DNA of 20,418 nucleotides, taken from a virus. Below the pieces are notes generated by a model. That model was not told the origin of the DNA and searched no databases. It saw only the letters and a program-made list of their open reading frames with translations. Position numbers and translations under genes: made by a program. Position 1 is the first letter of the stretch. Each line of letters begins with the position of its first letter. Location of the stretch: UHGV virus genome UHGV-0101751; one strand, given 5' to 3'. Shown here in pieces: positions 8,444-9,561 of the stretch.

Positions 8444-8965
8444 TTATTCTTCGAACAATTTTTCGATAGATTTTGTTGGATAGAACAAAGAACGATCGTT
8501 GTTACCAACCAGCTGGATAAAGCCCAAACTTTTATAAAACGCCCTGGCTTTATCGTTCAACGCCTCAACGAAAAGCCCATGAATGCCTACCGCAAGAGAT
8601 GCATTGTACACAACACGCATTGCGTGAGTTACAAGCATTGAGCCAAGCCCCTGACCTTGAAGAGATTTGTCCAAAGCCAGTCTGCCTAAAGTGATACTTG
8701 GGACATGCCGATAAGGCACTTTCTTTTGCTGACTCTTTGAAGGTAAGGTTTCTTTCTCAAAGCAGCTGCCTGACAAAGTGTAATAACCTAATACCTTTGG
8801 TATTTCTTCTTTAGTGCAAAGCACATAAGCGCGAAGAATTTTTCCTTCATGCTGTCTTTTTAAGTGGTTGGTCAAAAATGCGTTTAGCGACTCTTCGCCG
8901 CAATCAAAACCGTTTAGATCATAATCTTTCTCTCCAGAGAAAATCTCGATCGTCGTATTGCTCAC
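8444..8965 (-). CDS. GNAT-family acetyltransferase toxin (TacT/AtaT/KacT-like; 173 aa)
   Basis: The translation is close to what I recall of the AtaT/TacT family (FDCGEE, LGYYTLSGSCFE, ITLGRLALDKSLQGQGLG, AVGIHGLFVEALN, FYKSLGF). It sits directly downstream of a DUF1778-type gene. Confidence 0.85.
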   Translation of the reverse strand: MSNTTIEIFSGEKDYDLNGFDCGEESLNAFLTNHLKRQHEGKILRAYVLCTKEEIPKVLGYYTLSGSCFEKETLPSKSQQKKVPYRHVPSITLGRLALDKSLQGQGLGSMLVTHAMRVVYNASLAVGIHGLFVEALNDKARAFYKSLGFIQLVGNNDRSLFYPTKSIEKLFEE

Positions 8966-8972
8966 GAGTAAA

Positions 8973-9242
8973 TTACTCCATGCTTTTCAGACGATTGGCA
9001 GCTCGTTTCAGCTTGTCGTTCGGTGCCGGAGGATTGCTTATAGCATCCATAACCAGATTCCAGGACTCTTCACTTAGAACCAGTCTACGGTGTTGCTCTA
9101 TCACTTTCACGGCACGTTCGGATGCACTGCTAACCATGAACTGGGTAATGCTCTGGTTAGACATTGCGGCAGCTTCCTCGATGATGCTTTTATCGTCATC
9201 GGTTAATCTCAAATCGATGCGCTGCTTTTTCAGTGCGGACAT
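8973..9242 (-). CDS. DUF1778-type antitoxin (TacA/AtaR/KacA-like; 89 aa)
   Basis: Small upstream partner with a 7-bp gap to the toxin start; family-typical length and sequence. An inverted-repeat operator candidate lies just upstream. Confidence 0.8.
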   Translation of the reverse strand: MSALKKQRIDLRLTDDDKSIIEEAAAMSNQSITQFMVSSASERAVKVIEQHRRLVLSEESWNLVMDAISNPPAPNDKLKRAANRLKSME

Positions 9243-9252
9243 GTGTACCCCC

Positions 9253-9281
9253 TGATGGCCGGTGATGTAGGAAGGCCATCA
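9253..9281 (-). promoter_or_regulatory. Inverted repeat TGATGGCC-N13-GGCCATCA upstream of the antitoxin gene
   Basis: Perfect 8-bp arms, 11-40 bp upstream of the antitoxin start on the minus strand. Confidence 0.4.
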
Positions 9282-9561
9282 TTGCTCTCTATTTAAACTG
9301 AGTTTTCGACTCAAAGGTTATTTAACTGGGCTATAGCCCATTGCGTATGTGTCATCAAATTGTGTACGGCAATTTACCGTACTCGTAATATAGAGGTGAT
9401 TGTCACTTTTTTCAACAGACAAATGAAAACAGTTACTAGCAATAGGCAATAACAACCTACTAAATAACCTTTACACCGCAGCCGTAGGCATTTAGGCTAT
9501 ATCGCATATAAGAAAACAAGTTGTTTCATACGACAATAATTCACGCAAAGGAAACTCACCA

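Follow-up and report, generated by a model that had tools for sequence, protein, structure and literature searches.

The closest described counterparts of the locus analysed here are the toxin-antitoxin (TA) pairs AtaR-AtaT of Escherichia coli O157:H7 and KacA-KacT of Klebsiella pneumoniae. Both toxins, AtaT and KacT, fall into clade A, and their in vivo targets are glycyl-tRNA and tRNAs charged with hydrophobic residues (PMC9177977). The roles of individual AtaT residues have been described, and the exchanges Y144F and G108D each detoxify the protein (PMC7595197). Repression of the operon by operator binding has been shown for both KacAT and AtaRT. In the crystal structure of KacAT bound to a 27-bp operator (AAATGTACGGTTATTAACCGTACATGA), residues R8, D10 and R12 of KacA read the DNA, and replacement of either R8 or R12 with alanine abolishes binding; the kacAT transcription start site was reported to fall within this operator (PMC6698736). 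According to the published model of regulation, a complex of the AtaT-AtaR4-AtaT type binds the operator palindrome with high affinity, whereas surplus toxin releases the complex. Here, we describe a member of this family in the virus genome UHGV-0101751, of which a stretch of 20,418 nucleotides (the window) was analysed. We consider it highly probable that the locus, taken as a whole, is a type II TA operon of the AtaRT/KacAT family that is controlled by an upstream operator, preceded by a structured mRNA leader and carried as cargo by a plasmid-prophage. Its genes, control region and boundaries are as follows.

8444-8965, minus strand: gene for a GNAT toxin of the AtaT/KacT clade (173 amino acids, GTG start), assigned by PDB and Pfam matches and by conserved residues.
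8973-9242, minus strand: gene for a DUF1778/TacA1 ribbon-helix-helix antitoxin (89 amino acids), assigned by Pfam and PDB matches.
9247-9252, minus strand: ribosome-binding site (RBS) of the antitoxin gene, with the RNA sequence GGGGGU and a distance of 4 nt to the ATG, as read from the sequence.
9364-9382, no strand assigned: operator palindrome GTACGG-N7-CCGTAC (GTACGGCAATTTACCGTAC in the window), with the same core as the operator in the KacAT crystal.
9415-9387, minus strand: predicted sigma-70 promoter TTGAAA-17-TATATT, scoring 10/12 in a promoter scan, with a -10 box that ends 4 nt before the operator.
8419-8440, no strand assigned: GC-rich hairpin lying where the Rz1 and toxin genes converge, with 9 pairs and the tail ACATTATTCT, found in a terminator scan of the plus strand.
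About 8409-9464, no strand assigned: exchangeable accessory module in the slot between Rz1 and parA of SSU5-like phage-plasmids, delimited by homology breaks and GC content.

Both proteins are members of this family. Residues 1-172 of the toxin align with AtaT (6GTS/6AJM, E 6e-78) and KacT (5ZGN/5XUN, E 3e-75), and all of its matches to AtaT and KacT structures, 7CHD among them, lie between E 6e-78 and 1e-74, whereas TacT structures are matched much more weakly (E 1e-12 to 1e-21). Its global identity to the chromosomal AtaT of E. coli O157:H7 amounts to 67%, and three Pfam families (Acetyltransf_1, Acetyltransf_7 and Acetyltransf_10) are matched above their gathering thresholds. The catalytic tyrosine (Tyr144, corresponding to AtaT Y144 and KacT Y145) and the glycine that binds acetyl-CoA (Gly108, corresponding to AtaT G108) are both kept at equivalent positions. 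Besides these two, the toxin retains F30, H34, R37, S76, K77, S78, K81, K82, P84, Y85, R95, L27, L136 and K165. Of the 21 AtaT residues named in PMC7595197, 17 are identical in the toxin; the exchange R71K is conservative. The antitoxin, in turn, matches Pfam TacA1 (DUF1778, PF08681) over residues 8-86 (E 3.5e-26) and, in the PDB, KacA (5ZGN, E 2.5e-41, the best match) as well as AtaR (6AJM, E 5e-40). Its residues 3-26, including the DNA-contacting R8, D10 and R12, are exactly those of KacA, while residues 44-88 align with the C-terminal, toxin-binding fragment of AtaR (6GTQ, E 2.4e-16). Searches of both proteins against NCBIfam returned only sub-threshold matches to generic acetyltransferase and RelB/MobA models, with no AtaT-specific model among them. 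The antitoxin gene lies directly upstream of the toxin gene, with a gap of 7 nt between the antitoxin stop and the toxin start, and the toxin RBS (GGAG, 8976-8979) falls within the 3' end of the antitoxin gene. The initial annotation, made from the nucleotide sequence alone, had placed two minus-strand open reading frames (ORFs) at 8444-8965 and 8973-9242 and read them as a toxin close to the TacT/AtaT/KacT family with its DUF1778 partner; the gene coordinates, the pairing and the presence of the catalytic residues are all borne out by these comparisons.

The control region places the locus in the same family. Between positions 8300 and 9700, TTGAAA-17-TATATT is the sole good promoter found by the scan. 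The adjoining palindrome at 9364-9382 lies 121 nt upstream of the antitoxin ATG and hence outside the range 8444-9282 that had originally been reported for the cassette; it is predicted to be the binding site of the antitoxin-toxin complex and to overlap the transcription start. To place these elements in context, we compared 52 genomic and 56 viral loci with an antitoxin-related gene. The sequence GTACGG-N7-CCGTAC is present upstream of the antitoxin gene in 89 of 91 close-relative loci, at distances of 14-222 nt from the ATG. Moreover, 57 of the 58 distinct upstream regions of family members contain a complete promoter-operator unit, whatever the length of their leader (14-222 nt), consisting of a TTGAAN-like -35 box, a spacer of 17 nt (rarely 16) and a TATNNT-like -10 box that mostly ends exactly 4 nt before the palindrome. 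On the strength of these alignments, the promoter-operator unit is invariant in the family, and the variable part is the leader between this unit and the RBS. As a practical consequence, cloning 8444-9282 as a 'self-contained' cassette would omit both the promoter and the operator.

Together, these features suggest the following mechanism. Transcription would proceed leftward, on the minus strand, from the predicted promoter at 9415-9387, and the ribbon-helix-helix domain of the antitoxin, in complex with the toxin, would bind the palindrome over the predicted start and thereby repress the operon. The resulting leader of about 125 nt is predicted to fold into three hairpins, the last of which would stack against the antitoxin RBS and act on the RNA. 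Once freed from the labile antitoxin, which would otherwise block its dimerisation, the toxin may, by homology, form dimers that acetylate charged tRNAs at their amino group, so that translation stops. Homology with the clade A toxins points to glycyl-tRNA and tRNAs carrying hydrophobic residues as its probable targets. At the level of the host element, the module would stabilise the plasmid-prophage, since cells that had lost it would be killed or arrested.

The genomic setting identifies the cassette as exchangeable cargo. Plasmids of 113-170 kb from E. coli and Shigella match the window at 100% identity, and SSU5-like phage-plasmids are related to it. In SSU5 and PhiR41_1, homology stops at 8393/8408, at the end of Rz1, and restarts at 9465/9466; in the intervening slot, these two elements carry two unrelated plus-strand ORFs, for which we found no Pfam domain and no PADLOC match. 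Conversely, collinearity with the window extends over 7844-10584 (about 87% identity) in Cyrano and pEC7518-111k, which have the same cassette between Rz1 and parA. The GC-rich hairpin next to Rz1 is limited to these cassette-carrying relatives (pEC7518-111k is our locus L006), since SSU5 and PhiR41_1 have other sequence after Rz1. It folds with -16.8 kcal/mol (z -4.0) on the plus strand, where ACAUUAUUCU follows, and with -12.5 kcal/mol (z -2.25) on the minus strand, and it is likely a bidirectional terminator common to the convergent spanin and toxin genes that is stronger on the plus strand. This hairpin had been noted before, with a smaller extent, as one bound of the cassette, and it does belong to the module edge. 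The inverted repeat at 9253-9281 that had been taken as the other bound does not, with the promoter and operator lying beyond it (9364-9415) and the module ending at about 9464.

Nucleotide composition makes a lesser contribution to this picture. The cassette had been described as markedly more AT-rich than its surroundings, and windowed GC calculations do reveal a real difference: 8444-9282 has 44.2% GC compared with 50.2% for the window (a GC content this low or lower occurs in 7% of windows of the same size), and the module as a whole (8409-9464) has 43.0% compared with 48% in both immediate flanks (2.1% of windows are as low). However, this difference is modest, and only the toxin gene stands out (41.6% GC, with 0.41 GC at third codon positions, GC3), whereas the antitoxin gene has 47.8% and Rz and parA have 48-49%. 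Judged from the alignments, the acquired-cargo interpretation is much better backed by the comparative evidence than by composition. The proposed insertion between lysis and partition genes likewise holds in part: the slot extending from the spanin genes to parA is variable, but the lysis block is only a remnant, comprising the spanin genes and the last 62 endolysin codons, which a deletion of about 24 kb has joined to another gene. The lowest GC content in the window is found at about 11200-11800 (36-39%), just past a gene of the PD-T4-3 type, in a region that is more AT-rich than the cassette.

The same deletion bears on the nature of the host element. Positions 3590-7843 match SSU5 1-4253 (96.9%), while the sequence from 7844 onward matches SSU5 from about 28407, which places a deletion joint at 7843/7844. 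The approximately 24 kb missing at this joint include the virion genes, the holin gene and most of the endolysin gene. As a result, the ORF at 7254-8021 is chimeric, its residues 194-255 corresponding to endolysin residues 169-230 (85%). The same joint is found in at least five plasmids (NZ_CP090457, NZ_CP058829, NZ_CP086388, NZ_MG516909 and NZ_CP067400). By these comparisons, the host is a defective phage-plasmid, a deletion derivative that cannot make virions.

Since this derivative can no longer be a phage, a role of the module in plasmid retention is plausible, and in a low-copy plasmid-prophage, post-segregational stabilisation is the most economical explanation. We therefore regard it as the most likely main role. 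There is precedent for such a function: GmvAT stabilises a plasmid, and Phd-Doc of the phage-plasmid P1 is a type II TA addiction module on a plasmid-prophage. An alternative main role would be anti-phage activity, that is, abortive infection or superinfection exclusion for the benefit of the lysogen rather than plasmid addiction. The module lies in a slot of a prophage-like element whose cargo varies, the PD-T4-3-type defence gene at 10639-11406 is 1.4 kb away, and the Cyrano copy is expressed in lysogens, where the KacT genes are listed among the morons expressed during lysogeny in E. coli LF82, at 35x and 60x the local background (PMC9928086). However, neither toxin nor antitoxin matches any model in PADLOC-DB v2 at an E-value of 0.01 or better, and a literature search found no report of defence by GNAT/DUF1778 pairs. 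Furthermore, retention offers an obvious selective benefit to a low-copy element that is unable to make virions, and pairs of this kind, GmvAT among them, are established as plasmid stabilisers. On balance, a primarily anti-phage role appears unlikely.

The region between the operator and the antitoxin gene would form an mRNA leader of about 125 nt, 121 nt of which follow the operator. Its predicted fold in the window comprises three hairpins (HP1 to HP3).

9327-9340, minus strand: HP1, UGGGC-UAUA-GCCCA, seen in the folds, with two-sided changes across relatives in 3 of its 5 pairs.
9298-9314, minus strand: HP2, predicted by minimum-energy folding both in the window and, at an equivalent place, in divergent relatives.
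9253-9281, minus strand: HP3, an 8-bp stem with a 13-nt loop that abuts the RBS, identified by folding and comparison; it coincides with the inverted repeat of the initial annotation.

Several lines of evidence indicate that this architecture is conserved as structure rather than sequence. The whole leader folds better than shuffled versions (z -2.99). Leaders of about 120 nt are also found at chromosomal loci of Enterobacter soli, Huaxiibacter, Lelliottia, Salmonella and Morganella and on another E. coli plasmid, and their independent minimum-energy folds show the same three hairpins, built from different sequences. We trained a covariance model on the other leaders, leaving out the window group, and then re-aligned the sequences to it. 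This model recovered the window leader over its full length (9240-9365, minus strand) with 42 bits and an E-value of 1.7e-7. On the resulting alignment, pairing is maintained in 93.9% of the cells, compared with 19-44% when the partners are slid, and two-sided compensatory changes occur in 9 of the 14 modelled pairs (6 of 9 in HP3 and 3 of 5 in HP1), giving a covariation score that was unreached by any shuffle. The placement of the last hairpin is conserved as well: of 30 non-redundant long leaders, 22 have a hairpin of -5 kcal/mol or better whose end lies 9-18 nt upstream of the ATG, compared with 2.25 in shuffles (maximum 6 in 200 trials). Across all leader classes, these RBS-adjacent hairpins comprise about 19 different stem sequences, and the purine-rich RBS block is aligned in all leaders. 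Where the leader is short, as in AtaRT, the hairpin nearest to the ATG is the one formed by the operator palindrome. No match to the leader or its hairpins was obtained with Rfam 15, which returned only chance-level matches (E above 4) across 8300-9700 on both strands, and a literature search yielded no described leader or hairpin for kacAT or ataRT.

A function of HP3 may be proposed from its placement. Hairpins that lie 5' of the RBS and downstream of an AU-rich, single-stranded leader are classic 5' stabilisers or insulators; 5' stem-loops of the ompA type, for instance, protect a cleaved message from 5'-end-dependent RNase E and keep the RBS from pairing with upstream sequence. By its position, HP3 might serve as such an RNA stabiliser or insulator, shielding the coding part against 5'-end-dependent decay while leaving the RBS free, an assignment that we put forward tentatively, as the likeliest of the functions considered. 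Two other functions were rejected. An attenuator or terminator would be expected to run into a U-tract, whereas HP3 is followed by the RBS, and a pseudoknot between the loop of HP3 and the RBS was dismissed by inference from geometry, with no linker separating the 3' arm from the RBS. An ATG located within HP3 was also considered as the start of an N-terminal antitoxin extension or an upstream ORF. The Cyrano record (locus L001 3629-3934, CYRAN_27) indeed opens the antitoxin gene 12 codons early at this ATG. However, a 1-nt indel in the loop, which distinguishes the Cyrano type from the window type, breaks the reading frame, and the same ATG is missing from the Enterobacter, Lelliottia and Salmonella leaders. 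By these alignments, the 12-codon extension in the Cyrano record is probably an annotation artefact.

A more elaborate alternative would make HP3 part of a translational switch, in which the sequence CUUCCU, the pyrimidine-rich 5' half of the loop, could instead pair with the RBS and turn antitoxin translation off, with the formed hairpin representing the 'on' state. RNAalifold, when applied to an unbiased, plain MAFFT alignment, picks the pairing CUUC:GGAG/GGGG, which is kept in 11 of 11 sequences by identity or one-sided changes, and the pyrimidine tract of the loop is conserved across divergent stems; in terms of modelling, an alternative, repressing fold of the leader is thus possible. As a regulatory switch, however, it is very doubtful. 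The alternative helix has only 4-6 pairs and a 16-nt loop, making it far weaker than the 8-10 bp of HP3. Other leader classes have loops without a pyrimidine tract, and the geometry suggests that the two helices cannot coexist as a pseudoknot.

Several observations weigh against the structured-leader proposal and the wider explanation of which it is part. When the 319-nt intergenic region is shuffled with its dinucleotide content preserved, an 8/8 repeat with a spacer of 3-20 nt arises in about 10% of cases, and HP3 alone folds no better than shuffled sequence (z -0.18), so that it is only through the comparison with relatives that the repeat becomes significant. The covariation counts come from an alignment that was fitted to the model structure, among related sequences. 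HP2 lies outside the covariance model, with a register that varies among the seed sequences. In the above run on the plain MAFFT alignment, RNAalifold missed HP3 and paired the CUUC of its loop with the RBS instead, because the 3' arm of the window group is shifted by one column. In the characterised AtaRT and KacAT operons, the leaders measure 26-30 nt and lack HP3, which leaves the importance of this hairpin unproven. Beyond the leader, four residues that contribute to tRNA contacts or the pocket in AtaT are changed in the toxin (A26S, R40E, N41G and K79Q), and its target preference may differ from that of AtaT. Finally, addiction, anti-phage and persistence roles would all fit these findings.

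The shuffling results, together with the fact that AtaRT and KacAT work without HP3, would also fit the view that the repeat is a functionless chance feature of the leader. We consider this quite improbable, given the excess of RBS-adjacent hairpins over shuffles, the compensatory changes in HP3 and the behaviour of its loop. The loop sequence UUCCUACAUCAC is identical in the Cyrano-type leader and the chromosomal locus of Enterobacter soli, despite changes at 5 of the 8 stem positions (comparison with loci L012, L001 and L068); the loop of the window (9261-9273) has one extra base. The motif AUCAC is retained in most of the 11 aligned leaders and, as far as such alignments go, the loop seems more constrained than the stem.

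The weakest alternative is the initial reading of the repeat as a DNA operator bound by the antitoxin: although a perfect inverted repeat, TGATGGCC-N13-GGCCATCA, does lie exactly where it had been reported (9253-9260/9274-9281), just upstream of the antitoxin start, and has arms that are unchanged in the 87%-identical Cyrano-type copies, this reading can be set aside as extremely unlikely, because the DNA-reading strand of the antitoxin equals that of KacA, which reads GTACGG half-sites that the repeat lacks, because the repeat is part of the transcribed leader, about 100 nt downstream of the promoter, whereas a genuine palindrome sits next to the -10 box both in the window and in nearly all related upstream regions, and because relatives with the same antitoxin N-terminus swap the stem while retaining its pairing, which is the signature of an RNA element, the constancy of the DNA-reading residues amid changing stems making a protein-operator reading very unlikely.

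Returning to the interpretation of HP3 as a structural element of the mRNA, it is tempting to speculate that the AtaRT/KacAT operons carry a family-wide, so far undescribed cis-regulatory RNA layer, in which a modular leader of 14-222 nt, located between the invariant promoter-operator unit and the RBS, nearly always places a covarying, sequence-variable hairpin against the RBS and thereby sets the stability or translation of the antitoxin mRNA. In the leader class to which the window belongs, this hairpin has a conserved, pyrimidine-rich loop as well. We regard this broader notion as a conjecture that may well prove incorrect. If true, such a layer would tune the antitoxin:toxin ratio independently of transcriptional autoregulation. 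Many family members have a structured leader, with a hairpin fixed beside the RBS, that is lacking in both crystallised model systems; should this hairpin control antitoxin synthesis, a post-transcriptional layer would be added to a model TA system.

The upstream regions of some relatives vary in additional ways. At loci L099 and L101, two tandem operator-like palindromes are present about 32 nt apart, the first being GTACGG-N7-CCGTAC and the second a degenerate GTACAN-N7-CCGTAC, and downstream of them lies the same leader with three hairpins that the window has. Moreover, a second allele of the cassette, with an antitoxin that is 88% identical, occupies the same Rz1-parA slot in Kluyvera-type phage-plasmids (L008 2359-2453; L088-L098). 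Its leader contains tandem repeats of 7/14 nt (AAAACTG / AAAACTGAAAACGA), whose copy number varies by locus and yields leaders of 121-222 nt. The leader of L098 has another 14-nt repeat. An RBS-adjacent hairpin is retained in the second-allele leaders.

Further observations concern the genes beyond parA. The ORF at 10227-10586 (plus strand) encodes a 119-residue protein and overlaps the parA stop; it has no Pfam match, and its Cyrano homologue is annotated as 'RelE/ParE putative toxin', whereas its position suggests a small partition adaptor of the ParA system. It is followed at 10590-10622 by a long, near-perfect palindrome (TTATGCATTGGCGC...), located between this ORF and the convergent PD-T4-3-like gene, which is probably a bidirectional terminator; because of its palindromic nature, it matches PhiR41_1 100% in inverted orientation. 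The gene at 10639-11406 (minus strand) encodes a 255-residue GIY-YIG protein that matches PADLOC PD-T4-3 (E 1.3e-23) and Pfam LEM-3_GIY-YIG, and its GC3 of 0.445 is low like that of the toxin gene. It lies immediately beyond the parA operon in another variable slot, where PhiR41_1 has the same gene and Cyrano a different plus-strand gene.

The cassette itself is common. At least 520 contigs contain the exact toxin sequence and at least 1000 the exact antitoxin sequence, annotated as GNAT family N-acetyltransferase and DUF1778 protein, respectively, and one plasmid with 97% DNA identity labels the toxin gene ataT. Among 5426 complete E. coli genomes, about 152 contain 80% or more of the region 8400-9600. 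The cassette and its family are thus already known, as is its occurrence on SSU5-like phage-plasmids, and only the leader architecture appears to be undescribed. The identification as such is therefore ordinary, and the main use of the present re-analysis is a corrected regulatory map together with the structured leader.

Among the described systems, Phd-Doc of P1 offers a functional analogy for the proposed role only, as neither its proteins nor its toxin chemistry are related and the sequences share no relationship. Both GmvAT, from the virulence plasmid of Shigella sonnei, and Salmonella TacAT have the same two-gene layout and share the aminoacyl-tRNA acetylation chemistry but belong to the distant, glycyl-tRNA-specific clade D (PMC9177977). 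The nearest relative in context is CYRAN_26-CYRAN_27 of Cyrano from E. coli LF82, which lies in the same Rz1-parA slot, encodes a toxin that is 93% identical and has its leader, operator and HP3 arms in common with the window; however, Cyrano is an intact phage-plasmid, whereas the element in the window is without the approximately 24 kb of virion and lysis genes. KacA-KacT of K. pneumoniae (PDB 5ZGN, 5XUN) provides the best structural match of the antitoxin and shares the operator core. Its locus (L031) has a leader of only 30 nt, and conditional cooperativity has been shown for KacAT only. Finally, AtaR-AtaT of E. coli O157:H7 (PDB 6AJM, 6GTS, 7CHD), whose toxin is related over its full length and has its S76-K82 tRNA-binding helix largely kept in the window toxin, shares the gene order, the short intergenic gap and the promoter-N4-operator unit with GTACGG-N7-CCGTAC. 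It differs in being chromosomal, between panM and livJ, and in having a 26-nt leader without extra hairpins, where the operon in the window has 121 nt after the operator and three predicted hairpins.

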